From IMG/VR virus record IMGVR_UViG_3300043418_000120, positions 32,001 through 96,000 of that record: a stretch of DNA of 64,000 nucleotides; one strand, given 5' to 3'. This DNA is from a virus. Under the pieces are notes generated by a model, which saw only the letters and a list, made by a program, of their open reading frames with translations, was not told the origin of the DNA and did no database searches. Position numbers and translations under genes: made by a program. Every line of letters begins with the position of its first letter. Positions within the stretch are counted from its first letter, which is position 1. Shown here piece by piece: positions 1 through 57,925 of the stretch.

Positions 1-179
1 AGCTACAAGAACAGGACGAGGGTGGCGAATACTCAAACTCTATGATGGATTATCTACGCAACAACAACGATTCTGACTACAACCTACCAAAGAAGAAGCC
101 TGTGAAGAAGCGTGCTCTTTCATCACTAGAAGTGTTCTTTGAAGAAAATGGAGATGTGACTGATGAAGACAATGTATAA
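1..179 (+). CDS. gp55: C-terminal fragment of late-transcription sigma factor gp55 (5' truncated)
   Basis: Frame 3 reads LQEQDEGGEY...SSLEVFFEENGDVTDEDNV*. The acidic tail has an SLxxFF clamp-binding-like motif, and the position upstream of gp47-gp46 matches T4 synteny. Confidence 0.65.
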   Translation, partial: LQEQDEGGEYSNSMMDYLRNNNDSDYNLPKKKPVKKRALSSLEVFFEENGDVTDEDNV

Positions 180-38260: not shown

Positions 38261-38920
38261 ATGAAATTGAGTAAAGAAACCCAAGAGATTTTTAAGAACT
38301 TCGCTCACATCAATGCGAATTTGATGTTGCGTACAGGTAATAAAATTTCTACTTGGACTGAGAACAAGACGATTATCGCAGATGTGACTCTGCCTGAAAC
38401 ATTCCCACAAGACTTTGGCATCTATGATGTTAACGAATTCTTGGGTGTATTGAGCTTGTTCAACGACCCAGAGTTGACCTTCAACAACGACGTAGTTGTT
38501 ATCAAGGAAGGTAAGAACCAAATCAAGTACAAGGCAGCTGAGGAATCTACTTTGAAGACTCCAACAAAATCAATCGTGTTCCCAGAAGCAGAAATCAATT
38601 TCTCTTTGACAGCTGGCGATCTTCAACACATCATCAAGTCTGCTGGTATCCTGAAAGTCAATGACGTTTCGTTCATCGGCGATGGCAATACTTTGACAGC
38701 TTTGGTTGTTGACAAGAAGAACCCATTGACAAACAAATTTGAAATTGATGTTGGTACTACCGATCGCACTTTCACTGCCAACATGAAGATTGAGAACTTC
38801 AAGATGTTGCCAGGAGCATACGATGTTTCTATCGCTCGTATGAAAATCTGTCGCTTTAAAGCAACAACAAGCTCGTTGGTTTACTACGTTGCGGTTGAGT
38901 CTGATTCTACATCAGAATAA
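38261..38920 (+). CDS. gp45: sliding clamp
   Basis: MKLSKET..IFKNFAHIN..., FGIYDVNEFL, ENFKMLPGAY, YYVAVE. Confidence 0.95.
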   Translation: MKLSKETQEIFKNFAHINANLMLRTGNKISTWTENKTIIADVTLPETFPQDFGIYDVNEFLGVLSLFNDPELTFNNDVVVIKEGKNQIKYKAAEESTLKTPTKSIVFPEAEINFSLTAGDLQHIIKSAGILKVNDVSFIGDGNTLTALVVDKKNPLTNKFEIDVGTTDRTFTANMKIENFKMLPGAYDVSIARMKICRFKATTSSLVYYVAVESDSTSE

Positions 38921-38936
38921 ATAGACTGCTCATATT

Positions 38937-39215
38937 ATGAAGACCGTGAAAGAACTCGACGGTCGGCTCTGGCGTGAGCCGATCCTCGATGTATGGAATA
39001 CAACTCTTTTTGGTAAACAGTTGAAGACTTTCGTTTGCAGAACTTGTAAAGAGAAAGCCTACGTGTCCGAAGCGTATAAGTGCTCAACACGCAAGAGTGG
39101 TTACCGTCCTTACCATGCTTCATGCTGGAATAAGTACAACGGCAAATCGTTCTCGCGTTTGTTTGAAACACCAAAAGAGCCAGAACCAGTGGCTACCCTT
39201 GATTATTTTATTTGA
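38937..39215 (+). CDS. small Zn-finger protein with clamp-binding-like tail
   Basis: CRTC...HASC; C-terminus ATLDYFI; ATAAATA at 38917. Confidence 0.6.
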   Translation: MKTVKELDGRLWREPILDVWNTTLFGKQLKTFVCRTCKEKAYVSEAYKCSTRKSGYRPYHASCWNKYNGKSFSRLFETPKEPEPVATLDYFI

Positions 39216-44230: not shown

Positions 44231-44800
44231 ATGATGTATATGTTTGACGTAGAGACACTGGACGTAGAGAGCACCAGTGTCATTCTATCAGCATCAATTA
44301 TTGAGTTTGATCCGTCGGATACGACGAAGACATATCAAGATTACCTAGATACTGCGTTGTTCGTTAAGTTCAACGTAGCAGAACAGATTAAGAATTACAA
44401 ACGTACCATTAGCAAGGACACCGTTGAGTGGTGGTCTAAACAGCATGACTATGTGCGTAAAACCAGCCTGACTCCATCGGCTGATGACGTCACGACTATT
44501 GAGGGCATCGACCTTCTCAAAGACTACATCGGCGATAATGCAGGCAATTCAACATTTTGGGCACGAGGCTCGCTAGATCAAATGGTTATCGACAGCTTGT
44601 GTAAAGCAGCTGGACAAGAATTGATCGCACCTTATCATGTGTGGCGAGATATCCGCACTGCTTTGGACTGCCTGACTGAAACTTCAAAGAACGGTTACTG
44701 TAAACTGAAGATTGATTTTGACGTTGGTGCCCATGTCGTAAAACACCACCCAACTCATGACTGCGCATATGACATCATGATGTTGGTTCACGGTAAGTAA
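44231..44800 (+). CDS. dexA: 3'-5' exonuclease, DexA-like (DEDD)
   Basis: FDVETL, WARGSLD, RDIRT, HHPTHDCAYD. Confidence 0.8.
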   Translation: MMYMFDVETLDVESTSVILSASIIEFDPSDTTKTYQDYLDTALFVKFNVAEQIKNYKRTISKDTVEWWSKQHDYVRKTSLTPSADDVTTIEGIDLLKDYIGDNAGNSTFWARGSLDQMVIDSLCKAAGQELIAPYHVWRDIRTALDCLTETSKNGYCKLKIDFDVGAHVVKHHPTHDCAYDIMMLVHGK

Positions 44801-44808
44801 GGAGTTCA

Positions 44809-47313
44809 ATGGAATTTTACACAAACGTATTTCCACTTGGTAATAAGCTATGTGTGCGCGGTGTCAAGAATGGCATCCCATACATGGACAAGATCGACTT
44901 CAACCCAACATTATATGTTTCTTCGAAGACTAAGAATGCTGGCGAAGTTCATCACACATTGGATGGACAGGCTGTTTACGCAATTCAGCCAGGATCTATT
45001 CGAGAAACGAAAGATTTCCTTGAGCGTTATAAAGATGTTCAAGGTTTCAACGTATTTGGCAATACCAACTTTGCCTACCAATACATCTCTGACAACTATC
45101 AGTCTGAGATTAAGTATGACAAATCGCTAATCAAAATCACATCGATCGACATCGAAACTTCTACTGAAGAAGGCTTTCCCAATATTGAGACTGCCAATGA
45201 AGAAGTGCTTCTGATCAGTATGATGGATAATACTACTAAAGAGATTCATGTCTTTGGTAAGAGTCCATACACAGGTAACAAGGAAGTTATCTTTCACCAC
45301 TGCGAAAATGAAGCAGCCCTACTGTTGAATTTTATCGACTTCTGGAAAGAGAACTATCCTGATGTTGTTACTGGTTGGAACATTAACTTCTTCGATATTC
45401 CGTACTTGATTCGTCGAATCATGGTTGTTCTTGGTGATCAAGCTGCGAAACAGTTGTCGCCTTGGAATGTTCTCTATGAGCGTAAGATCAACTCGCGTGG
45501 TCGTGAAGAACTTTGTTATGATATCGCAGGTATCTCTGCGCTTGACTATCTTGACTTGTACAAGAAGTTCACATACACGATGCAAGAATCATATAAACTT
45601 GATCACATCGCCTTTGTTGAGCTTGGTGAGAACAAGCTAGACCACTCTGAGTACGAAACCTTCAAGGACTTCTATACTTACGGTTGGAAGAAGTTCGTTG
45701 ACTACAACATTCACGACACTAAGTTGGTTGACATGTTGGAAGATAAGATGAAGTTGGTTGAGTTGGCTATCGTTATGGCGTATACTGCTCGCGTAAACTA
45801 TGAGGACGTGTTCTCTCAAGTTCGTATGTGGGATACCATCATCTATAATCATTTGAGAGCCAAGGGAATTGTTATTCCTAACAAGACTCACAACGAGAAA
45901 GATGCTGTTATCGAAGGCGCATATGTTAAGGATCCGCTGGTTGGCATGCATGACTGGGTTGTGTCTTTCGACTTGAACAGTCTGTATCCTCACTTGATTA
46001 TGCAGTATAACATCTCACCAGAAACGATGGACGCTAACTACAAGCACATCGGTGGTGTAAACTATTTCCTTGAGCATGCTGAGACTGGTGGATATCACAA
46101 CCTGAACCTTTCTTGTACTGCCAACGGCTGGTGTTATACGAAAGAGCATAAGGGTTTCTTGCCTGAGTTGATGGAAAAGATGTACATCGATCGAAGCAAA
46201 GCCAAGAAGCAAATGTTGAAGATCCAGCAGGATTATGAGAACACCAAGGATAAGTCTCTGGTAAATGAGATCTCTCGCTTGAACAACCTTCAGATGGCTT
46301 TGAAGATTGCTTTGAACTCAGCTTATGGTGCGTTGGCCAACCAGTATTTCCGTTACTACGACAAGCGTATGTCTGAGGGCATCACGTTGTCTGGTCAGTT
46401 GTCTATTCGTTGGATTGCTAACAAGTTGAACGGATACTTCAACAAGATGCTCGGAACTGACAAGGATGACTTTGTTATTGCGGTTGATACTGACTCTGTG
46501 TACTTGCGCTTTGGTCCATTGATTGATAAGTTGTTCACGAAGGAAGACCAACTCGACAAAGATAAGATCGTCAAGTTCATCGATAAGATTTGCGAAGATA
46601 AGCTACAGCCATTCATTGATAAACAGTATCAAGAGTTGGCCGATCGTCAGAATGCCTTTGCTCAGAAGATGATCATGAAGCGCGAAGTTATTGCCGACCG
46701 TGGTATCTGGACTGCTAAGAAGCGTTACGTTTTGAACGTACACAACTCTGAGGGTGTTCAGTACGCTCAACCCAAGATGAAGATTATGGGTCTTGAGATG
46801 GTTAAGTCATCGACGCCTCTGGTTGTTCGTGACAAGTTGAAAGAGGCGATGAAGATTGTTATCAAGGGTGATCAACTTGCTCTGCGTAAGTTTATTACTG
46901 ACTACAAGACCGAGTTCTTCAAGCTGTCGATTCCTGAGATCGCATTCCCTCGTGGTGTCAACAACATGAAAGAATATGCTGACGCTGGTAAGGTATATCG
47001 TAAGTCAACGCCTATCCATGTTCGTGGTGCTTTGATGTACAACCATATGCTCAAGCAGAAACAACTCGAGAATAAGTATCAGCCTATCAACGAAGGCGAT
47101 CGTATCAAGTTTATCTACTTGCGCGAACCCAACACACTACACGAAGATGTGATTAGTTTCACAACTGAAATTCCAAAGGAATTTGATTTGGATAAATACG
47201 TTGATTACGAGAAACAATTCAACAAGGTTTTCTTGGATCCTCTGGCTGCTATCATGGGCGCAATCTCATGGACGATCGAGGACGAAGCGACTCTTGATGA
47301 CTTCTTCGCGTAA
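44809..47313 (+). CDS. gp43: family B DNA polymerase
   Basis: DIET exonuclease motif, SFDLNSLYP, KIALNSAYG, DTDS, C-terminal LDDFFA clamp motif. Confidence 0.98.
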   Translation: MEFYTNVFPLGNKLCVRGVKNGIPYMDKIDFNPTLYVSSKTKNAGEVHHTLDGQAVYAIQPGSIRETKDFLERYKDVQGFNVFGNTNFAYQYISDNYQSEIKYDKSLIKITSIDIETSTEEGFPNIETANEEVLLISMMDNTTKEIHVFGKSPYTGNKEVIFHHCENEAALLLNFIDFWKENYPDVVTGWNINFFDIPYLIRRIMVVLGDQAAKQLSPWNVLYERKINSRGREELCYDIAGISALDYLDLYKKFTYTMQESYKLDHIAFVELGENKLDHSEYETFKDFYTYGWKKFVDYNIHDTKLVDMLEDKMKLVELAIVMAYTARVNYEDVFSQVRMWDTIIYNHLRAKGIVIPNKTHNEKDAVIEGAYVKDPLVGMHDWVVSFDLNSLYPHLIMQYNISPETMDANYKHIGGVNYFLEHAETGGYHNLNLSCTANGWCYTKEHKGFLPELMEKMYIDRSKAKKQMLKIQQDYENTKDKSLVNEISRLNNLQMALKIALNSAYGALANQYFRYYDKRMSEGITLSGQLSIRWIANKLNGYFNKMLGTDKDDFVIAVDTDSVYLRFGPLIDKLFTKEDQLDKDKIVKFIDKICEDKLQPFIDKQYQELADRQNAFAQKMIMKREVIADRGIWTAKKRYVLNVHNSEGVQYAQPKMKIMGLEMVKSSTPLVVRDKLKEAMKIVIKGDQLALRKFITDYKTEFFKLSIPEIAFPRGVNNMKEYADAGKVYRKSTPIHVRGALMYNHMLKQKQLENKYQPINEGDRIKFIYLREPNTLHEDVISFTTEIPKEFDLDKYVDYEKQFNKVFLDPLAAIMGAISWTIEDEATLDDFFA

Positions 47314-47338: not shown

Positions 47339-47548
47339 ATGGAAAATACTACTGTGGCAAAGAAGCCACCTTTCAAACTGATTTGCGAAAAGCACGGAGA
47401 AATCCCAGATGACTACGTGTTCCGTGTGAATATGCCCGACTTCGGCTATGAACAAAAGACTTACTGTCTTGTATGCGCCATTGAGTATCTCTCGATGATT
47501 GCTAACGAAGTTACCTATGTACCAAATGATGAGGAGAAATCAGAATGA
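47339..47548 (+). CDS. small Zn-binding hypothetical protein
   Basis: CEKHG...YCLVC; AAGGA SD. Confidence 0.65.
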   Translation: MENTTVAKKPPFKLICEKHGEIPDDYVFRVNMPDFGYEQKTYCLVCAIEYLSMIANEVTYVPNDEEKSE

Positions 47549-48606
47549 GCTTTTTAAAAGATATTGTAAAAGAACTGGATAATGAATATGCGGGACTCGC
47601 TGATGATGGTGTGGTTGGTGATACTGATACTTTTATCGACACTGGTTCTTATACTCTCAATGCCCTGCTATCTGGCAGCATCTATGGTGGTTTACCTGGC
47701 AACAAAGTCACAGCTCTGGCTGGTGAGTCGTCGACTGGTAAAACCTTCTATGCTCTGGGTATTGCGAACAATTTTCTCCGCACTGATCCAAAGGCTGGAA
47801 TCATTTACTTCGAAACCGAAGGTGCCCTGAACCGCGAAATGCTCGAAGAGCGTGGTATCGATACCAAGCGTTTCATGATTGTGCCAGTTTCGACAGTACA
47901 GGAATTCCGTACTCAAGCTACTAAGGTTCTTGATTCGTACGAGAAGACTCCTAAGAAAGATCGACCACCATTGATGTTCTTCTTGGACTCATTGGGTATG
48001 TTGTCAACTTCAAAAGAAATGGAAGACATCGCTGAAGGTAAAGACACTCGCGATATGACACGTTCTCAATTGATTCGTGGCGCATTCCGTGTGTTGTCAT
48101 TGAAGTTGTCTAAACTTGATGTCGCGATGGTTGTTACAAACCATACCTACGCTGTCATCGGTTCTTACATGCCATCCCGTACTATGGGTGGTGGTGATGG
48201 TTTGAAGTACGCAGCTTCTTCGATTGTGTTCTTGTCTAAGTCTCAAGACAAAGACGGTACTGAAGTTGTTGGTAACATCATCAAGTGTAAGGTTGAGAAG
48301 TCTCGTTTCACTCGCGAGAAGTCAATGGTTGAAACGAAGCTGTCGTTCACCAAAGGTTTGGATCGTTACCATGGCTTGACCGATCTGGCTGTTGAAGCTG
48401 GTATCTGGAAGGCGCAAGGTGGACGTATCGAAGTTCATGATGGACGTAAGGTGTTCGGTAAGGCTATCGCTCAACGCCCAACAGAATTTTTTACCAAGGA
48501 AATCCTAGATAAACTTGACACATACTGTAAATCCAAGTATAATTATGGTAGCGACGAATCTGTTGTTACTGATAATGATATTGAGGATGAAGTAGATGCG
48601 AATTGA
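47545..48606 (+). CDS. uvsX: RecA-like recombinase
   Basis: DTGSYTLN, AGESSTGKT, LDSLG, MGGGDGLKYAAS. Confidence 0.96.
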   Translation: MSFLKDIVKELDNEYAGLADDGVVGDTDTFIDTGSYTLNALLSGSIYGGLPGNKVTALAGESSTGKTFYALGIANNFLRTDPKAGIIYFETEGALNREMLEERGIDTKRFMIVPVSTVQEFRTQATKVLDSYEKTPKKDRPPLMFFLDSLGMLSTSKEMEDIAEGKDTRDMTRSQLIRGAFRVLSLKLSKLDVAMVVTNHTYAVIGSYMPSRTMGGGDGLKYAASSIVFLSKSQDKDGTEVVGNIIKCKVEKSRFTREKSMVETKLSFTKGLDRYHGLTDLAVEAGIWKAQGGRIEVHDGRKVFGKAIAQRPTEFFTKEILDKLDTYCKSKYNYGSDESVVTDNDIEDEVDAN

Positions 48607-49990
48607 AGACCAAATCTTTGGCAACTTAATTAGTCACGAGGAGTACGCAAGAAAGGTTATGCCTTTCTTGTCCCCTGACTATTTTACAGATAGAACCGAC
48701 CGAGTTATCTTTGAAGAACTTGCTCGGTTCTTCACCAAATACAATGCTGCTCCTGCGAAGGACGTTTTGAAGATCGAGGTAGCAAACCGCACCGATGTGA
48801 CTGAAGACCAAGTCAAGGCTGCGAACAATATCCTCGACTCTGTTCAAGCAGAGAAGACTAACATTGACTGGATTACAGATTCGACTGAGAAATTCTGTAA
48901 AGACAAGGCTGTTTACAATGCTATCATTAACTCCATCCGAATCATCGATGGTAAAGACAAGAATCATAATGCTGACGCTATTCCTGACCTTCTGTCTAAA
49001 GCTCTCGCTGTCACTTTTGATTCTCATGTTGGCCATGATTACTTGGAAGATTCTGACTCTCGCTATGACTTCTATCATCGCGTTGAAGAAAAGATTCCTT
49101 TCGACTTGGATATGCTCAACAAAATCACCAACGGTGGTCTGAGTAAGAAAACCCTCAACGTAATTCTAGCTGGTACTGGTGTTGGTAAGTCGCTGGCGAT
49201 GTGTCACTTCGCAGCTGCTAACTTGATGCGCAGTAAGAACGTTCTCTACATTACCATGGAAATGGCTGAAGAGCGTATCGCTGAACGTATTGATGCGAAC
49301 TTGCTAGAATTGTCTATGGATTCTTTGAAGATGGTTGAGAAACGTGTCTTTGATTCACGCCTTGACAAACTTCGCAAGAAAGATCCAGGCAAGTTGATTG
49401 TTAAAGAATATCCAACTGCCTCTGCGCATTCTGGTCACTTCAGAGCGTTGATTGAAGAACTGAAGATGAAACGTAACTTTATCCCTGATATCATCTACAT
49501 TGACTACTTGAACATCTGTTCTAGCCAACGTATGAAGATGGGTGGCTCTGTAAACTCTTATACATATATTAAAGCAATCGCAGAAGAACTGCGTGGCTTG
49601 GCAGGTGAGTACAAGGTGCCAATTGTTACGGCTACTCAAACGACTCGAGGTGGTTTCGCAAACAGCGACCCAGGATTGGAAGATACTTCTGAATCGTTTG
49701 GTTTGCCAGCGACAGCTGACTTGATGCTTGCGTTGATTAGCACAGAAGAACTTGAACAAATGAACCAGATTATGGTGAAGCAGTTGAAGAACCGTTACTC
49801 TGACCCGAACTTCTATAAGAGATTCGTAGTTGGTGTTGACCGTAAACAAATGAGACTTTATGATGTTGAAATGAGCGCGCAAGCCAATATCTCTGATCAA
49901 GGTGAGATTGACGACGATGTTCCCGTTTTCGACAGAGGCAACTTCGGCAAAAGAATCAAGACTGAGGGATTCAAAGGATTTAAGGCATAA
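48596..49990 (+). CDS. gp41: replicative DNA helicase
   Basis: AGTGVGKS, ITMEMAEE, IDYLNIC, TATQTTR, SESFGLPATAD, KQLKNRY. Confidence 0.97.
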   Translation: MRIEDQIFGNLISHEEYARKVMPFLSPDYFTDRTDRVIFEELARFFTKYNAAPAKDVLKIEVANRTDVTEDQVKAANNILDSVQAEKTNIDWITDSTEKFCKDKAVYNAIINSIRIIDGKDKNHNADAIPDLLSKALAVTFDSHVGHDYLEDSDSRYDFYHRVEEKIPFDLDMLNKITNGGLSKKTLNVILAGTGVGKSLAMCHFAAANLMRSKNVLYITMEMAEERIAERIDANLLELSMDSLKMVEKRVFDSRLDKLRKKDPGKLIVKEYPTASAHSGHFRALIEELKMKRNFIPDIIYIDYLNICSSQRMKMGGSVNSYTYIKAIAEELRGLAGEYKVPIVTATQTTRGGFANSDPGLEDTSESFGLPATADLMLALISTEELEQMNQIMVKQLKNRYSDPNFYKRFVVGVDRKQMRLYDVEMSAQANISDQGEIDDDVPVFDRGNFGKRIKTEGFKGFKA

Positions 49991-50001: not shown

Positions 50002-51381
50002 ATGGTTAAAGTAATTGTAGCAGATAAAATTCATGATTCAGAACACTTGCTCGGCATGTTTGTCGACGAGTCGCACTACGATGTGTTAATTGAAGAAGAC
50101 ACAGATTGTTATCTACCAGCAGATTGTGACGCTGCTTCGCAGGCAAACTGTGAAACCGATCGCGACTGTTCTAATTGTTCGAAGGGTATGAACGAGGCGC
50201 GTATCGCCTTCAAATTCCGTAAGAACTTCTTCACCAAAGAAGAACAAGATAATGCATATGCTGGTCTGCGCGAAGCTGCTGTTCGTACCGAAAACCGTGG
50301 ACTTGCTTCTGGTATCAAAGAAGGTACATCCGTAACAGGCGAAGGTCGTGAGTGGGTTACCAACTATCAAGAAGAAATGATTCATGCGATCCTGAGTGCT
50401 CGTACTGAGTCCTTGATTGAAGGTGATGTGATTGAAGAAGTTCGTTCACGTTTCCCAACCCAAGCCGATCGTCTAAAGGCTTTGGGCTCTGGTAAGAACA
50501 ACGTATGGGTTATCTCGCGTTTCCGTAACAAGTTCAACTTCGACGAGTTCATCGACAGCATCATTCCTCTCGATCGCGAGAAGCGTGCTACTGAGATGGA
50601 AGAAGTCATGAAGATGATCAGTGAGACATCTTATGGCAACCCTGTTGACTCAGGTATCGCTGGTTGGTACGATCGTTATCCACGTATCCCTTATGGTCGT
50701 GCGACAACTTACACTCGTGACAACTTCGAGAAATTCCAGTTGGCTTACCCATTCCTTCAAACTCTTGCGAAGGGGTTTAAAGACTTGTTGCCATGGCGTT
50801 ACAACAACCAGATGGAAGCTGCTAAGAAACTTGACCCACGTTACCTTGTGCCTGGAACACCATTCACCACAATTACCGTGAACAAGACTTTCCGTACAGC
50901 TGCTCACCGTGATGCTGGTGACTTGGATTCTGGTTTGTCGAACTTGTTGACTCTATCTAACGATGGTCGTTACACAGGTGGCTACTTGATTTTCCCAGAG
51001 GTTCGCATTGCTGTTAATGTGCGTCCAGGCGACTTGCTGTTGGTTAACAACCACGAAGTTATCCACGGTAACACGCCAATCGTATGTGAGGAAGGTTCTG
51101 AGCGCATTTCTTTGGTATGTTATTTCCGTGAGAAAATGCTTGAGCTTGGCACTCACGAATATGAAGATGCTCGCTATCGTTACGTCGAATCTCGTCGTCT
51201 GAATAAAGAACACCCAATGTGGAAGAAACTCTGGAATGGTGTTTCTCCAGGCATGTGGGATGACGCTGAATGGTACGATTTCCTTCGTAAACAACCGAAC
51301 GGCGACGCAATGGTAGCAAAGTACCACCCTGACGCGAACAACGCCGACTTGGGCGACTTGGGAGATGAATGGTTCGCTTGA
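50002..51381 (+). CDS. TET/JBP-family 2OG-Fe(II) nucleic-acid dioxygenase
   Basis: SGIAGWYD...PFTTITVNKTFRTAAHRDAGD...GDLLL...HGNT...RISLVCYFR parallels the kinetoplastid JBP1/2 oxygenase motifs. Confidence 0.85.
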   Translation: MVKVIVADKIHDSEHLLGMFVDESHYDVLIEEDTDCYLPADCDAASQANCETDRDCSNCSKGMNEARIAFKFRKNFFTKEEQDNAYAGLREAAVRTENRGLASGIKEGTSVTGEGREWVTNYQEEMIHAILSARTESLIEGDVIEEVRSRFPTQADRLKALGSGKNNVWVISRFRNKFNFDEFIDSIIPLDREKRATEMEEVMKMISETSYGNPVDSGIAGWYDRYPRIPYGRATTYTRDNFEKFQLAYPFLQTLAKGFKDLLPWRYNNQMEAAKKLDPRYLVPGTPFTTITVNKTFRTAAHRDAGDLDSGLSNLLTLSNDGRYTGGYLIFPEVRIAVNVRPGDLLLVNNHEVIHGNTPIVCEEGSERISLVCYFREKMLELGTHEYEDARYRYVESRRLNKEHPMWKKLWNGVSPGMWDDAEWYDFLRKQPNGDAMVAKYHPDANNADLGDLGDEWFA

Positions 51382-51406
51382 CTTTTATCCTATAATCAGG
51401 TATAAT
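51378..51406 (+). promoter_or_regulatory. sigma70-like promoter
   Basis: TTGACT-17-TATAAT. Confidence 0.8.
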
Positions 51407-51429
51407 TGACTATATTTTAAGGAATCACA

Positions 51430-52290
51430 ATGCGATCGAATTATTGGTCATGTTCTAAATTTGCTGACTGGCTTCGTGGTACTGACAAGCCACCAGCAGC
51501 AACTTCGGAAGGCTGGCGCTCATGGCGCCTTGCCTCTAAGAAGACACACCCAATCCGTCATTGGATCGTTGAAGAAGGTCTTGACAATCTTCAACGATTC
51601 GTCTATTGGCCAGCTGACAAGTTGAACGACATTCGTTACTACATCAACAACCGTTGGGTGGCACGTTCGCATTCACTGACAGCACATCCTCGCGATATCA
51701 AGCCAGGATCTTGGTGCGATGTTGGTAACCGTTTCTTGCCTTGTATGTTCAATGAGTTGGTTGACTTTGTTGAAGTTGAATCAGCATGGATGCATGTTGT
51801 TTGGAACGACGAGAATCGCGACAAGTACAATGTTCCATTCTGGCGCAAGCAATGGTGGACACGTTGGGGAATGGTATGGCGTTGTAAGGAAGCTGGTCTT
51901 GATCATTTGAACTGGGCTGCTCAGTTGCGTTTCGATGATGAGTTCATTGAACAAGACAGCCCATCATACGGCAAGTTCACACCACAAGCCATAAATGCTC
52001 AGGAAATTCTAAGCCTTTACACTTGGTGGACTGAGAAGCGTCCAGCTCGTCCCGATCCATATGAAGTGTCAGGTTGGTCAGCATTGTGCGCTGAGCGTAG
52101 AGCTGCTCGTCGCGCCGAAACTGGCGACAGCAAGGATGACTTCTTTATCTCCGACGAGAAGACACCAGAAGCTAGACAGAAAACAACTGCTGCTCTAGAT
52201 GCGCTACATATGTTAGAGGCAGAATATGAAAAAGAAGACGAAGAAATGATGATTCGTCTAATCAAAGTACGACACGGTCTCTGGACTTAA
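51430..52290 (+). CDS. Trp-rich conserved phage hypothetical protein
   Basis: FNELVDFVEVE...LYTWW...EDEEMMIRLIKVRHGLWT. Confidence 0.8.
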   Translation: MRSNYWSCSKFADWLRGTDKPPAATSEGWRSWRLASKKTHPIRHWIVEEGLDNLQRFVYWPADKLNDIRYYINNRWVARSHSLTAHPRDIKPGSWCDVGNRFLPCMFNELVDFVEVESAWMHVVWNDENRDKYNVPFWRKQWWTRWGMVWRCKEAGLDHLNWAAQLRFDDEFIEQDSPSYGKFTPQAINAQEILSLYTWWTEKRPARPDPYEVSGWSALCAERRAARRAETGDSKDDFFISDEKTPEARQKTTAALDALHMLEAEYEKEDEEMMIRLIKVRHGLWT

Positions 52291-52302
52291 TAAAGGAAAA
52301 AC

Positions 52303-53652
52303 ATGAAGATTATGATGGTAATGCACACCTTCAACAATTTTGGAGGTATTATCAACCACTGTGAACATCTAGTCGCAGGGTTGAAAGAGCTTGGTCATGA
52401 GGTTACGTTCGCGTATCTGAAAGGCAACAAGACAGTTCGACCAGTTGAGATTCCAACTGAGTTGAAGGAAGGTTATGAGATTGGTGTTGGCACAGGTTAT
52501 CCTGTACACCAAGGCGATGGTTGGATCGCACCTTATTACTCATACAAAGTTCAAGAATCGATTGACAAATTTGTTGTAGATGCTAACCAACACGATTTGG
52601 TTATTTGGCAGTCTATCTTTGGCTTCAAGAATAAAGACACCGAGAAGTCTCTAATGTGGTTGCCGATGGTTGAGAAAATCACTGCCAAGCAAGTCCCAAT
52701 TATTCATGATGCTAACTTGAAGAAGCTGTACCCTTGGATCCAGTTGTTTGAGAAACACTTTGCTGGTCTGGCATGCGTTCACCCAGCAGCTTATGACTCA
52801 GCTGACTTTATGGATGTTCCACGTGCTCTGATTTTGAACCCACAGGACATTGCTAATATTCCCCAGCCACCCTTGTTTTCGAACCAAGAAAACAAGGTTT
52901 TGTCTATCCAGACATTCAAGCGTTGGAAACGTGTTGATGATTTGATTCGTGCTGTACCACACATGAAAGAGGTTAAGACTCTGGTTGGCGGTTATGGTAT
53001 TGAAGCAGCTTACATGATGTCCAAGGACAAATGTAAGGACGAGTACTACTGCACTTCGCAGTATGACCCAGATCGTACCCCAGAGATGGATGGTAAGCGT
53101 ATTTGGCAAAACGCCGAGGAATCAGGTAACTTTGAGTACCTTGGATTTATCTCAGGAGCAAAGCGTGATGAAATTCTATCAACATCTAAGTTTTTGGTTG
53201 ACCCCTCTTGGTCAAATACTTTCGGCGAGCATTTCAACCGTGTGGTTGTGGACGCTATGCGCATTGGTGTCGTACCAATTGCCATAAACTTTGGTGTCTC
53301 TGACAACGAAGAAGGTCAAGGCGTCGTTCTGAAGGCAGGTATCAACTACTGTATGATCAAGAAAGGCTCTACTCCAAAGCAGTATGCCGACAAGATTAAA
53401 GAGTTTTGTAACATGTCTCAGGCTGATTACCAACAAATGCAGCTAAATAACTATGAACTGATTAAACAGTTCGATCGAAAGGTAATTGCTCAGCATTACA
53501 TCGACTTGGCTATGGGTAAGGAGACAGGCTATCTGAACGAACTTAGAACCAAGACGAACCATGACCCAAATATCCCTAGAGTTGCGCGAAACATGTTTGA
53601 AGAACACTTCGAACAACCCAGCGCACAGTCTTTGGACGATTTCTTCGGGTGA
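52303..53652 (+). CDS. GT-B glycosyltransferase (candidate DNA glycosyltransferase)
   Basis: N-terminal FGGIINH..LVAGLKELGHEV, KRWKRVDDLIRA, EHFNRVVVDAM (E-x7-D); C-terminal SLDDFFG. Confidence 0.8.
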   Translation: MKIMMVMHTFNNFGGIINHCEHLVAGLKELGHEVTFAYLKGNKTVRPVEIPTELKEGYEIGVGTGYPVHQGDGWIAPYYSYKVQESIDKFVVDANQHDLVIWQSIFGFKNKDTEKSLMWLPMVEKITAKQVPIIHDANLKKLYPWIQLFEKHFAGLACVHPAAYDSADFMDVPRALILNPQDIANIPQPPLFSNQENKVLSIQTFKRWKRVDDLIRAVPHMKEVKTLVGGYGIEAAYMMSKDKCKDEYYCTSQYDPDRTPEMDGKRIWQNAEESGNFEYLGFISGAKRDEILSTSKFLVDPSWSNTFGEHFNRVVVDAMRIGVVPIAINFGVSDNEEGQGVVLKAGINYCMIKKGSTPKQYADKIKEFCNMSQADYQQMQLNNYELIKQFDRKVIAQHYIDLAMGKETGYLNELRTKTNHDPNIPRVARNMFEEHFEQPSAQSLDDFFG

Positions 53653-53688: not shown

Positions 53689-54342
53689 ATGAAAGCTGAT
53701 CTGATCCAAAACTACAAACACAACTTCGTGGATCTGCTGAATGTGGATCTACCGTCACTCGTCCCAGCTAAACTCTGGGACGACTTTGACAAGTATCGCG
53801 ACGACCCCAAGGGTATGAAGCGTTATCTTGCTCGTCAACATAAAACAAAACTAGAATTTGAATACGACCCAAGAGAATGCCGTGTCTCTGGGGAATTCGA
53901 CATTGAGACAGAACGTATCTCAATTTTCGCTACCATTTCTCGCCGTTGGGAAGACAGAGACTGGGACTACTTCAAGTTTGAGGTAATTGTCACCATGATG
54001 CATGAGTATATTCATTACATGCAGTGGTTGAAGAGTGGAGATGAGATGGATCTGGTGCTGTTCCACAAGGAAAGCAAGAACCCAGACAAACAAGAAGACC
54101 GCGAGTACTACGCTTGCTGGTCAGAGATCCAAGCCTATGGGCACTGTATCTACATGGAGATGAAGGCTAAGAATGCCAAGAAATCCTGTGCTGAGATGCT
54201 ACAATCCAAGAGACGAAGCTGGTACTCGCCATCATTACGTCAATTCAGAACTGCATTTGATGGTTTTGACTATCCTTTACGCTACCTGTACCGAGAGGTG
54301 CTCCGCTGGGAGAAACGCTACGAATCACTAAATATAGGATAA
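53689..54342 (+). CDS. HEXXH (zincin-like) hypothetical protein
   Basis: HEYIHYMQ...YY...EIQAY. Confidence 0.7.
   Translation: MKADLIQNYKHNFVDLLNVDLPSLVPAKLWDDFDKYRDDPKGMKRYLARQHKTKLEFEYDPRECRVSGEFDIETERISIFATISRRWEDRDWDYFKFEVIVTMMHEYIHYMQWLKSGDEMDLVLFHKESKNPDKQEDREYYACWSEIQAYGHCIYMEMKAKNAKKSCAEMLQSKRRSWYSPSLRQFRTAFDGFDYPLRYLYREVLRWEKRYESLNIG
54328..54334 (+). promoter_or_regulatory. candidate late promoter CTAAATA
   Basis: Resembles T4 TATAAATA; located where the late gene cluster begins. Confidence 0.55.
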
Positions 54343-55671: not shown

Positions 55672-56847
55672 ATGAAATCGTTTCTACAATATATTACCGA
55701 GGAAGCTGAAGGCGCGAAGCTAAAGCATATTCACCATGCTGAAGATCGTCCTCTGTATCACGGAGCTAAAGGCTTCGAGCATGCGCATGGCGCATTGACA
55801 CAGGCTCACCAGCATATGGTAAGTGGACACTCTAATAGCAACCTGACAATGAAGTATGACGGTTCTCCAGCTGTTGTTTATGGACATCACCCTGAGAATG
55901 GTAAATTCTTCGTCGCTTCTAAGTCTGCGTTCAACAAGAACCCAAAGCTGAACTACACTCACGCCGATATCCAAAAGCATCATGGCCATGCTCCTGGACT
56001 TGTGGATAAGTTGGGCGCGGCTCTTTCTCACCTACCAAAAGTTGCGCCAAAGAAAGGTGTCTATCAAGGCGACCTGATGCATAGTCATACTGACGTTGAG
56101 CATCACAAAAGTGGCTCAGCTTCATTTACGCCAAACACCATCAAGTACACTGCTCATGGCGCGGAGGCAGCTGCTGTTAAGAAGTCAAAGGTTGGTGTTG
56201 TTACTCATACACAATATCACGGTAAAGATATTACCTCGATGGCCGCATCGCCACACGTCGATCACCACAACTTTAAACAACATCCAGACGTATACCAAAA
56301 GTCTGCTGAGCACGACACAAGTAAGGTAAAGTACCCGAAGGCTGCTCAACAGAAATTCCTACACCACATCGGCGCAGCGCATGATATCCACAAGGAACAT
56401 GGCGCTAAGATGTACTCAGCTATACACCCACAACATGCTGGCGAAGCTGGTCATCTTGGTACATATATTAACCAAACAGTTCGTACTGGTGCAAAGCCAT
56501 CTGCTAAAGGTTTCCAGCAACACTTGACTGCTAAACATCAAGCAGCTGCTGATAAGTTGAAGAGCGAAGCGGGTAAGAGCAAGAAAACTACTGAGGGAGC
56601 TGCTCACGTTGCTCACGTTGAGAAGAACAAACCTCATTACGAAAATCTATTGAAGATGCATCAGCATATTCATGATGCCAAGAACGTTCTAGTGAAGCAT
56701 CTAGAAACACACGAAGGCGGTCTAGACCATCACATTGGAACAAAGAAGTCGAAGCCAGAAGGCTTTGTTGTTAACCACGCTAATGAGCCAACGAAGCTAG
56801 TCAATCGCGCTGAGTTTGCCAGAGCCAACCTACTGAAGACACGATAA
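55672..56847 (+). CDS. His-rich RNA-ligase-like nucleotidyltransferase (DUF6267-like), probable internal head protein
   Basis: MKYDGSPA (KxDG), YQGDLM, PEGFV, KLVNR; N-terminus MKSFLQYITEE. Confidence 0.7.
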   Translation: MKSFLQYITEEAEGAKLKHIHHAEDRPLYHGAKGFEHAHGALTQAHQHMVSGHSNSNLTMKYDGSPAVVYGHHPENGKFFVASKSAFNKNPKLNYTHADIQKHHGHAPGLVDKLGAALSHLPKVAPKKGVYQGDLMHSHTDVEHHKSGSASFTPNTIKYTAHGAEAAAVKKSKVGVVTHTQYHGKDITSMAASPHVDHHNFKQHPDVYQKSAEHDTSKVKYPKAAQQKFLHHIGAAHDIHKEHGAKMYSAIHPQHAGEAGHLGTYINQTVRTGAKPSAKGFQQHLTAKHQAAADKLKSEAGKSKKTTEGAAHVAHVEKNKPHYENLLKMHQHIHDAKNVLVKHLETHEGGLDHHIGTKKSKPEGFVVNHANEPTKLVNRAEFARANLLKTR

Positions 56848-57311
56848 TGATCTCATTCAAACAATACCTAGAAGAAGCCAAGCGTGGCTTGTGGGATAAC
56901 ATCCACGCAAAGCGCGAACGTATTAAGAACGGTTCAGGCGAGCGTATGCGAAAGCCAGGAAGTAAAGGCGCACCAACCGCTGCGAACTTGAAACAAGCTG
57001 CAGAATCGGTCGAGCACGAATGCGAGTGCGAAGAGAAGTGCGGATGCGATACTGTTCTTGAAGACGCTAAGGGGTACAAGAACCCAACAGGAGGTCTTAC
57101 CCAGAAAGGCAGAGACCATTATAATCGCGAAACTGGCGGAAACTTGAAAGCGCCAGTCACAACTCCTCCTTCTAAGCTAAAGAAGGGTAGCAAAGCTGCT
57201 AATCGCCGTAAGTCATTCTGCGCTAGAATGTCTGGCGTAGAAGGTCCAATGAAAGATGACAAAGGTCGTCCAACCCGCAAGGCTCTTGCTCTAAGAAAGT
57301 GGAACTGCTAA
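56847..57311 (+). CDS. basic probable internal head protein (DUF6321-like)
   Basis: MISFKQYLEE; GGLTQKGR...RRKSFCARM...ALRKWNC. Confidence 0.7.
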   Translation: MISFKQYLEEAKRGLWDNIHAKRERIKNGSGERMRKPGSKGAPTAANLKQAAESVEHECECEEKCGCDTVLEDAKGYKNPTGGLTQKGRDHYNRETGGNLKAPVTTPPSKLKKGSKAANRRKSFCARMSGVEGPMKDDKGRPTRKALALRKWNC

Positions 57312-57925
57312 TGAAAAGATTTATCGACTATTTGTTCGAAGCTGCCGAGAAGCATCATGTGCTTGCGTTCGGTCGTATGAACCCAATCACTTCTGGTCAC
57401 GAGGCTGTTGTTAACAAGGTACACGATGTTGCCAAGAAACATAAAGCTGATCACACTGTTGTTGTTTCACATAGCCAAGACGCTAAGAAGAATCCTTTGA
57501 CTGGTGAACAAAAGGTTAAACATGCCAGCCGAGCATTCCCTGGAACAAAGGTGAAGTCTGCTAGCAAGGAACACCCTACAATCCTACACCATGCTGCTGA
57601 ACTACACAAGGCTGGCGTGCAACACTTACACGTTGTAGCTGGTTCTGACCGCCACCATGAGATGCATACACTGCTTCATAAATACAACAACGGCGAAAGC
57701 CATAAGCATGGTTCTTACCACTTCAAGTCTATCACAGTACACTCTTCAGGCGCACGCGACCCTGACGCTGAAGGAACAACTGGTATGTCTGCTAGCAAGA
57801 TGCGCGAACATGCTAGTAAAGGCGAGAAGGATAAATTCCATGCAGGCGCTCCATCAAAGATGAGCACTAAACACAAAGACGAAATGTATCATGAAGTAAG
57901 AAAGGGCATGGGGCACCATGACTGA
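57311..57925 (+). CDS. His-rich HxGH-class (cytidylyltransferase-like) nucleotidyltransferase
   Basis: FGRMNPITSGH, KKNPL, VAGSDR, GMSASKMR; N-terminus MKRFIDYLFE. Confidence 0.85.
   Translation: MKRFIDYLFEAAEKHHVLAFGRMNPITSGHEAVVNKVHDVAKKHKADHTVVVSHSQDAKKNPLTGEQKVKHASRAFPGTKVKSASKEHPTILHHAAELHKAGVQHLHVVAGSDRHHEMHTLLHKYNNGESHKHGSYHFKSITVHSSGARDPDAEGTTGMSASKMREHASKGEKDKFHAGAPSKMSTKHKDEMYHEVRKGMGHHD

Follow-up and report, generated by a model that had tools for sequence, protein, structure and literature searches.

Phage thymine dioxygenases (T-dioxygenases) have been established experimentally, and a ParB-independent subclass of them is often associated with glycosyltransferases (GTs); a C5-methyltransferase (C5-MTase) occurs in only about 6% of the mined phage 5mYOX pathways (PMC13229309). 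The enzyme TET89 yields about 10% 5-hydroxymethyluracil (5hmU) in E. coli DNA (PMC8256090). The dense and selective modification carried out by such post-replicative phage enzymes is openly described as unexplained (PMC13229309). In T4, the C-termini of gp43, gp55 and gp33 bind the sliding clamp gp45 and are interchangeable, and the crystal structure of RB69 gp45 with a bound peptide places the latter in a hydrophobic pocket of the clamp (PMC2988020). Here we describe a locus in which a TET/JBP-family dioxygenase and a GT, both encoded in a T4-like replication operon, end in peptides of this clamp-binding type. The stretch analysed (hereafter the window, 64,000 nucleotides) corresponds to bases 32001-96000 of the IMG/VR record IMGVR_UViG_3300043418_000120, which is 173,880 bp long and rated 100% complete by CheckV; positions are those of the window unless stated otherwise. 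We put at about 55% the probability that the two enzymes constitute a post-replicative, clamp-tethered DNA hypermodification module which converts thymine into glycosyl-5hmU. The phage would then probably be turning thymine into a sugar-capped base, in the manner of base J, on newly copied DNA. The chemistry of phage T-dioxygenases and GTs has already been published, and the new element is the clamp tails.

A TET/JBP-family dioxygenase in the replication operon

The genome is that of a T4-like phage, which also encodes gp45, gp44/62, RegA and gp55. The genes of the locus follow each other on the plus strand in the order exonuclease, gp43, UvsX, gp41, dioxygenase, a 286-amino acid (aa) open reading frame (ORF), GT and a 217-aa ORF. 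A nucleotide search with the locus against the phage collection returned no match, and tblastn searches of that collection with the GT and with the 286-aa ORF were also negative.

The dioxygenase gene (50002..51381, plus strand, 459 aa) lies right after uvsX and gp41, as the initial annotation of the window had stated, and all the motifs quoted there (SGIAGWYD, FTTITVNKTFRTAAHRDAGD, HGNT and RISLVCYFR) are present. Its product matches the Pfam family Tet_JBP (PF12851) with 91.2 bits (cut-off 34.9, E 5.6e-26) over residues 235-377 (nt 50704-51132) as well as phrog_24024, and scores 93.8 bits in a six-frame search of the genome with the Tet_JBP profile. The iron triad (H302/D304/H355) and the 2-oxoglutarate (2OG)-binding R368 are invariant among 21 aligned sequences. 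The AlphaFold2 (AF2) model has a mean predicted local distance difference test score (pLDDT) of 76, with residues 449-459 below 50, and its top Foldseek matches are CcTet, NgTET1, human TET2 and CMD1 (E 5.5e-11 to 1e-8, probability 1.00), DNA-bound TET-family structures being among the matches. Judged by its sequence, the oxygenase is a genuine member of the TET/JBP family, and its Fe/2OG site is intact. The label "JBP-like" which it had first been given holds for the catalytic domain but not for the rest of the protein, in which the only other Pfam match is a sub-threshold TauD, and neither a J-binding nor a SNF2 domain was found. The N-terminal region of about 230 aa is conserved within the clade, and no Pfam family was matched by residues 1-232. 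The closest catalytic domain from an isolate is that of the HTVC112P enzyme (46% identity), and since this enzyme adjoins a ParB, a placement of the window dioxygenase in 5mYOX clade C1 is as possible as one in C2 (5mYOX89/97).

Two further features of this family were observed. A Cys-rich insert with a C..C..C..C pattern (residues 40-62, nt 50119-50187) is found in about half of the relatives and is cleanly missing in the rest, and may be an optional zinc-binding knuckle. The metagenomic proteins P0244-P0257 (about 1040 aa) are a fused form in which an N-terminal TET domain is followed by about 680 unannotated aa, and have basic C-termini without a clamp-type tail; they share 35-36% identity with the window dioxygenase over its residues 66-440, and 45-48% over the catalytic region (205-400).

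The glycosyltransferase partner

Two genes further on, the GT-B enzyme ending in SLDDFFG that had initially been noted was confirmed (52303..53652, plus strand, 449 aa). It matches Glycos_transf_1 (PF00534) with 42.4 bits (cut-off 26.4, E 6.9e-11), and its AF2 model (pLDDT 89.5) has the two-Rossmann GT-B fold, with HepE, PimA, BshA, MshA and PglA as top Foldseek matches (E 4e-13 to 1e-10). No profile match was obtained with the T4 alpha- or beta-glucosyltransferase families (PF11440 and PF09198), neither T4 structure is within the top 50 Foldseek matches, and a sequence search of the PDB with the GT family profile gave nothing at E ≤ 0.01. Four residues (E309, D317, L444 and F448) show no variation across 35 sequences that extend down to 55% identity; E309-x7-D317 presumably sits at the position of the EX7E motif of GT4 enzymes, with Asp instead of the second Glu. 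On the evidence of the model, the partner enzyme is a GT4-type GT-B glycosyltransferase. The base-J-like pairing first proposed is therefore retained in part: a GT-B glycosyltransferase is present, but it is not of the JGT/TAGT type, and no TAGT (PF20691) was found in the genome at E ≤ 1. Since the model is nearest to GT4 enzymes of the retaining type, the linkage formed is probably alpha rather than the beta of base J. Homologs of the GT number more than 300 in metagenomes, many of them on contigs of 150-173 kb.

C-terminal tails resembling clamp-binding peptides

The family-B DNA polymerase gp43 (44809..47313, plus strand; Pfam DNA_pol_B and DNA_pol_B_exo1, about 55% identical to cyanomyophage gp43) ends in TLDDFFA (47290-47310), the GT in SLDDFFG (53629-53649) and the dioxygenase in DLGDEWFA (tail ADLGDLGDEWFA, 51343-51378). 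The resemblance of the two enzyme tails to that of gp43, pointed out in the initial annotation, is borne out by their match to the clamp-binding peptides of T4 and by selection at the protein level. T4 gp43 ends in ASLDFLFG and T4 gp55 in SLDFLYEAND. The late sigma factor gp55 of the window phage was located by tblastn with gp55 of DLP6; its gene begins before the window and its 3' end occupies positions 1..179 on the plus strand. It has the C-terminus SSLEVFFEENGDVTDEDNV, in which SLEVFF is followed by an acidic extension (SLEVFFEEN) in the same layout as in T4 gp55. The agreement between the ends of gp55, gp43, TET and GT thus defines a consensus, S/T-L-D/E-x-F-F, that is common to two classical clamp clients and two modification enzymes. 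The tails of the TET and GT are accordingly predicted to be gp45-binding motifs, and the proposed docking platform, gp45, is encoded at 38261..38920 on the plus strand (34% identity to the DLP6 sliding clamp; its cluster carries PF02916 and PF09116). No description of clamp tails on TET or GT enzymes was found in the literature searched on the sliding clamp or gp45 in combination with TET, dioxygenase, hypermodification or glucosyltransferase; clamp or gp45 genes have been noted merely as neighbours of GTs (bioRxiv 10.1101/2023.12.21.572611).

The tails are specific to these genes. Within the 173,880-bp genome, the real genes ending in D[DE][FW]F[AG] are only gp43, the dioxygenase and the GT. 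A set of 49 related IMG/VR loci was also considered, from which six-frame ORFs of at least 60 aa were taken (n=1793). Tailed ORFs amount to 111 of these, and 109 of the 111 are gp43 (29), TET (43) or GT (37), all three of which end in [ST]L[DE]x[FL]F[GA]. Wherever a locus extends to gp43, the order gp43-uvsX-gp41-TET-(variable gene)-GT is retained, with UvsX (47545..48606, plus strand; Pfam RecA, E 1.3e-13) and gp41 replicative helicase (48596..49990, plus strand; Pfam DnaB_C, E 1.1e-18) keeping their positions as synteny anchors, and the TET lies upstream of the GT in every locus with GT identity of at least 76% that is long enough on that side. Two more distant GT homologs (29% identity), from a context that is not T4-like, have neither a TET neighbour nor a tail.

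Conservation within the tails follows the consensus. Among the 120 GT homologs listed (down to 55% identity), nearly all end in L-[DE]-x-[FL]-F-[GA], more than 100 keeping the tail; across 35 aligned sequences, L444 and F448 never change, while residues 438-443 vary. For the TET (21 sequences), L450 is invariant and F457/F458 nearly so, next to variable residues 444-449. At the conserved Leu, 4-6 different codons are in use, and at the Phe both of the possible ones, while the four preceding residues vary freely. This synonymous turnover indicates that it is the peptide, rather than a signal in the DNA, that is under selection. The ends of both the TET and GT models have low pLDDT, as expected of flexible tails. 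The tail of the window dioxygenase itself is atypical, with a 4-residue insertion (a DLG-DLG duplication) and Trp in place of Phe, where close relatives end in NNADLDEFFA.

Other C-termini were also inspected. A baseplate hub protein ending in GIESFF (genome positions 145794-146501, phrog_150) was taken as a coincidence, and several antisense or short tailed ORFs retrieved from the same genome with loose patterns were set aside. Between gp45 and gp44, a 92-aa Cys-rich, zinc-finger-like ORF (38937-39215, plus strand) has a Pro/Glu-rich linker followed by ATLDYFI, another clamp-type tail; it has no PHROG family, and its sole Pfam match is a sub-threshold PHD-finger. From these features, it could act as a coactivator similar to gp33 or be an additional client of gp45. 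In this clade, the gp41 helicases have a different C-terminal peptide in common, F-x-G-F-K-[FVA] (EGFKGFKA here, 49946-49987), which may dock another replisome partner.

Tails in other phage lineages

TET orthologs with 41-46% identity are found in other T4-like phages, where they are mis-annotated as "SNF2 DNA repair protein". In C48C1 the gp43 tail is ATLEDFFG and the TET tail ISLEEFFV; in DLP6 these are ATLDSFFA and ATLGDFFV. Cr30 has a gp43 ending in ADLSSLFD and a weak TET tail (GATLF), and Melnitz, whose TET is distant (26% identity), has TLEDFFG on gp43 and NLNDFLGE on the TET. All four encode gp45. The TETs of S-CBWM1, HTVC112P and P12024L have no tail; gp45 is absent from these phages, and a gp43 tail is not applicable. 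The TET is therefore tailed in 5/5 lineages with gp45 (counting the weak tail of Cr30) and in 0/3 phages without it. The motif is not limited to TET and GT-B enzymes. In DLP6, a TAGT encoded two genes upstream of the TET (PF20691, E 1e-9; phrog_842, E 1.8e-58) ends in LSDLSSFFN, and a TAGT-like protein of Cr30 ends in ISDLSKLF, close to the DLSSLFD of its own gp43. Since TET, GT-B and TAGT enzymes all carry tails, acquisition of the motif has taken place in at least three unrelated folds. We find it reasonably probable that the clamp peptide on base-modifying enzymes is a general strategy of T4-like phages, repeatedly acquired (by TET/JBP, GT4 GT-B and GT-A-like TAGT enzymes), which would make modification processive and confine it to clamp-loaded DNA.

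The gene content around these TETs varies. In Cr30 (locus L051, 10027-12164), an amino-acid:DNA transferase (PF18724, E 1e-52) is encoded next to the tailed TAGT-like protein, about 1.7 kb downstream of the TET, and the cluster is a candidate for a complex thymidine hypermodification in a cultured phage. In the Methylophilales phage Melnitz-3 (locus L064, 1-4924), gp43 is followed, in this order, by an HhaI-like C5-MTase, the TET ending in NLNDFLGE, an uncharacterised 427-aa protein and a P-loop kinase-like protein; this appears to be a cytosine-route cluster in a T4-like phage, with a clamp-type tail on the TET only among the modification genes. The TET of C48C1 (locus L052, 8353-10385) is followed by a 344-aa protein without a family and by a UDP-galactopyranose mutase (PF03275, E 5.6e-52), which hints at a galactofuranose-type sugar on the DNA of this phage.

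The base that would be modified

The initial annotation had found neither a C5-MTase nor a dCMP hydroxymethylase in the window, which holds for the complete genome: no C5-MTase (PF00145) was matched even at E ≤ 1, and no member of the thymidylate-synthase family (PF00303) was found, so that the genome has no dCMP or dUMP hydroxymethylase. This speaks against a methyltransferase encoded elsewhere in the genome, which had been put forward as the source of 5-methylcytosine (5mC) in one of two candidate routes, and leaves the other, which starts from thymine, as the favoured one. ParB (PF02195) and amino-acid:DNA transferase were likewise not found in the complete genome. ThyX is encoded, and the phage DNA is therefore made with thymine. 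C5-MTase is also missing from DLP6, Cr30, C48C1 and S-CBWM1, isolates with the same TET family, and the TET ortholog of Cr30 lies near an amino-acid:DNA transferase, a family of thymidine hypermodification. The DNA of DLP6 is listed in the table of a review as resistant to restriction enzymes (PMC8228603). Taken together, the presence of ThyX and the lack of a C5-MTase, a hydroxymethylase and a ParB favour a route from T to 5hmU and on to glycosyl-5hmU, with thymine as the presumed substrate.

Proposed mechanism and alternative explanations

In the mechanism that we propose, ordinary dTMP would be made by ThyX, and canonical DNA would be replicated by gp43, gp45 and gp41. The Fe(II)/2OG dioxygenase would convert thymine in duplex DNA to 5hmU by hydroxylating its methyl group, and the GT would move a sugar from a nucleotide sugar to the hydroxyl of 5hmU, giving a base-J-like, probably alpha-linked, glycosyl-5hmU. 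The tails (S/T-L-D/E-x-F-F-G/A) would dock both enzymes either on unoccupied pockets of the gp45 trimer or on clamps that remain behind the fork. Once docked, the enzymes could slide with the clamp and scan new phage DNA in one dimension, at a raised local concentration. Docking would both speed modification and restrict it to phage DNA, sparing that of the host, similarly to DNMT1 on PCNA, the likely pay-off being protection against host nucleases.

Several points weigh against this mechanism and are taken here together with the alternative explanations. The phage is known solely as a metagenomic contig, and its chemistry is deduced from its genes. The choice of TET-family enzymes between T and 5mC cannot be read from their sequence (PMC8256090), and Melnitz pairs a tailed TET with a C5-MTase, so the tail is uninformative on the substrate. 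In a cytosine route, 5mC made by a host (or unrecognised phage) methyltransferase would be oxidised and then glycosylated by the GT to glycosyl-5-hydroxymethylcytosine, as in published C5-MT/TET/GT clusters. Such a route would be in line with the genes of Melnitz (gp43, C5-MTase and a TET with a clamp-type tail), with the first characterised phage TETs, which are 5mC dioxygenases working with GTs (PMC8256090), and with the ability of T-dioxygenases to oxidise 5mC as well (PMC13229309). We consider it quite unlikely here: PF00145 is missing from the complete genome and from the four isolates with this TET family, the Melnitz TET is only distantly related to the window enzyme, the substrate supplied by host methylation would be sparse and site-specific, and C5-MTs are rare in the mined 5mYOX pathways.

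The remaining points concern the GT and the tails. The GT resembles ordinary bacterial GT4 enzymes acting on lipid or small-molecule acceptors, unlike the alpha- and beta-GT of T4, and for this reason its DNA acceptor is suggested by context and tail only. The dioxygenase alone might then act on DNA, with the GT directed at a protein, a lipid-linked glycan or a small molecule, and its tail serving another purpose or a non-DNA target at the clamp. The closest structures, GT4 enzymes whose acceptors are lipids, thiols and polysaccharides, and the lack of a match to the T4 AGT, T4 BGT or TAGT families would fit this explanation, which we hold to be the most credible of the alternatives, itself unlikely. 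Indeed, the TET lies upstream of the GT in all close relatives reaching that far, within the replication operon; the GT tail is of the gp43 type and is conserved down to 55% identity, distant homologs out of this context being without it; and the GT-B DNA glycosyltransferases of phage 5mYOX clusters are also PglA-like (bioRxiv 10.1101/2023.12.21.572611). As for the tails, that of the window TET is aberrant and may bind gp45 less well, or be retuned; that of the GT is only about 7 residues from a well-packed helix of the AF2 model, compared with a linker of about 17 residues in T4 gp55. No covariation of tail variants between gp43, TET and GT is evident within genomes (e.g. GT LESLFG occurs with gp43 LEDFFG), and the mechanism thus gains no support from covariation. 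A tail of this kind is missing from T4 alpha-GT, and the interaction with gp45 proposed for this enzyme was recently not reproduced (bioRxiv 10.64898/2025.12.06.692756). The tails could instead bind the clamp loader, gp32 or a chaperone, or be a degradation or localisation signal of replication-phase proteins. Their binding to gp45 is a prediction, and the binding mode of the T4 polymerase tail is not simple, since a second site, located at the open interface of the clamp, is contacted by this tail as well (PMC2988020). This is the least probable of the alternatives, considering that the peptides of T4 gp43 and gp55 shown by experiment to bind gp45 have the same position, chemistry and sequence as the motif, that the motif is present on the cognate gp43 and gp55, and that among TETs it occurs only together with gp45.

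Neighbouring genes

An exonuclease is encoded at the start of the locus (44231-44800, plus strand). The Trp-rich 286-aa protein encoded between the dioxygenase and the GT (51430..52290, plus strand) has no Pfam, PHROG or NCBIfam family and only viral hypothetical proteins as Atlas matches. Only some of the related loci, which form one sub-clade, have it (9 distinct sequences), and it is probably not core to the module. The possibility that it is a TAGT or a ParB-like activator was rejected, as it belongs to no family, is unlike the TAGTs of DLP6 and S-CBWM1, is confined to one sub-clade and is found in a genome without ParB. Its extreme C-terminus is strongly conserved (LIK[VI]R[HQ][GS]LWT), and an acidic, gap-rich segment contains a hydrophobic pair, which reads DDFF here and GFF, GLF or DLL in relatives.

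The 217-aa conserved protein (53689..54342, plus strand) is found 3' of the GT in nearly all relatives and may be part of the module; searches of Pfam, PHROG and NCBIfam gave no family for it, and its Atlas matches are viral hypothetical proteins only. Further downstream, phrog_455 is matched by two proteins, a DUF6267 protein (55672-56847) and one of 208 aa (57299-57925). The latter also matches PHROG "cytidyltransferase" families (E 5.6e-58) and, weakly, TIGR00125. By analogy with a published heptose-DNA pathway, it could supply the GT with an activated sugar, but relatives differ in how its gene is linked to that of the GT.

Significance and comparison with known systems

If the tails act as predicted, they would provide a concrete and easily testable answer to the question of dense and selective modification, with the enzymes tethered to gp45 on newly made DNA. 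DNA base-modifying enzymes would then join the short list of gp45 clients (polymerase, ligase, gp55 and gp33), forming a viral parallel to the coupling of DNMT1 with PCNA, and one could explain how post-replicative pathways rival the pre-replicative dNTP-pool route of T4. The disputed idea of DNA GTs riding on gp45 would also be revived in a clear-cut form, which bears on the contested story of T4 alpha-GT and gp45. The clade is abundant in metagenomes, cultured carriers exist (DLP6, Cr30, C48C1 and Melnitz), and the enzymes could serve as labelling tools for 5hmU or base-J-like modifications.

Amongst described systems, the phage thymine dioxygenases (5mYOX clade C, with 5mYOX89/97 as examples of the ParB-independent subclass; O'Toole et al. 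PNAS 2026, PMC13229309; Burke et al. PNAS 2021, PMC8256090) share with the window enzyme the TET/JBP fold with its Fe/2OG site, a neighbourhood with a GT and without C5-MTase or ParB, and the predicted post-replicative conversion of T to 5hmU followed by glycosylation. The window enzyme differs in its additional N-terminal region of about 230 aa, in its setting within a T4-type replication operon and in its polymerase-type clamp motif, which is unmentioned in PMC13229309 and PMC8256090.

The base J system of kinetoplastids (JBP1/JBP2 and JGT) follows the same two-step logic, in which a TET/JBP oxygenase produces 5hmU that is then O-glycosylated, and the window catalytic domain is 36% identical to a metagenomic protein with a JBP2-like architecture (Tet_JBP and SNF2). 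Judged by its domains, the window system is nevertheless not a member of it: J-binding and SNF2 domains are missing, the GT is a GT4 GT-B enzyme and not a TAGT/JGT, the linkage is probably alpha, and targeting by the sliding clamp would replace chromatin factors. DNMT1 is a DNA-modifying enzyme that is brought to newly replicated DNA by a short peptide (PIP box) binding the clamp PCNA. The parallel drawn with it is one of analogy only, as the clamp, the motif, the chemistry and the biological purpose are all different.

Like the T4 clients of gp45 (gp43, gp55 and gp33), the window enzymes have, following a variable linker, a short peptide of acidic-hydrophobic type that lies at the C-terminus or close to it; the carriers are here DNA base-modifying enzymes, with predicted binding, and not a polymerase or transcription factors. 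With the alpha- and beta-glucosyltransferases of T4, the window GT shares the GT-B fold, an origin in a T4-type phage and, as a prediction, the post-replicative glycosylation of 5-hydroxymethylpyrimidine DNA, and an interaction with gp45 had once been proposed for alpha-GT as well. It has no sequence-family relationship to them, and in T4 the hydroxymethyl group is installed before replication by the dCMP hydroxymethylase, an enzyme that is missing here. Finally, the pairs of TET and TAGT (DLP6, S-CBWM1 and P12024L; PF20691) differ from the window clade in their glycosyltransferase, which is unrelated to the GT-B enzyme found here in a genome without PF20691, but they likewise combine a TET/JBP enzyme with a dedicated DNA GT, and the TAGTs of DLP6 and Cr30 also carry a clamp-type tail.

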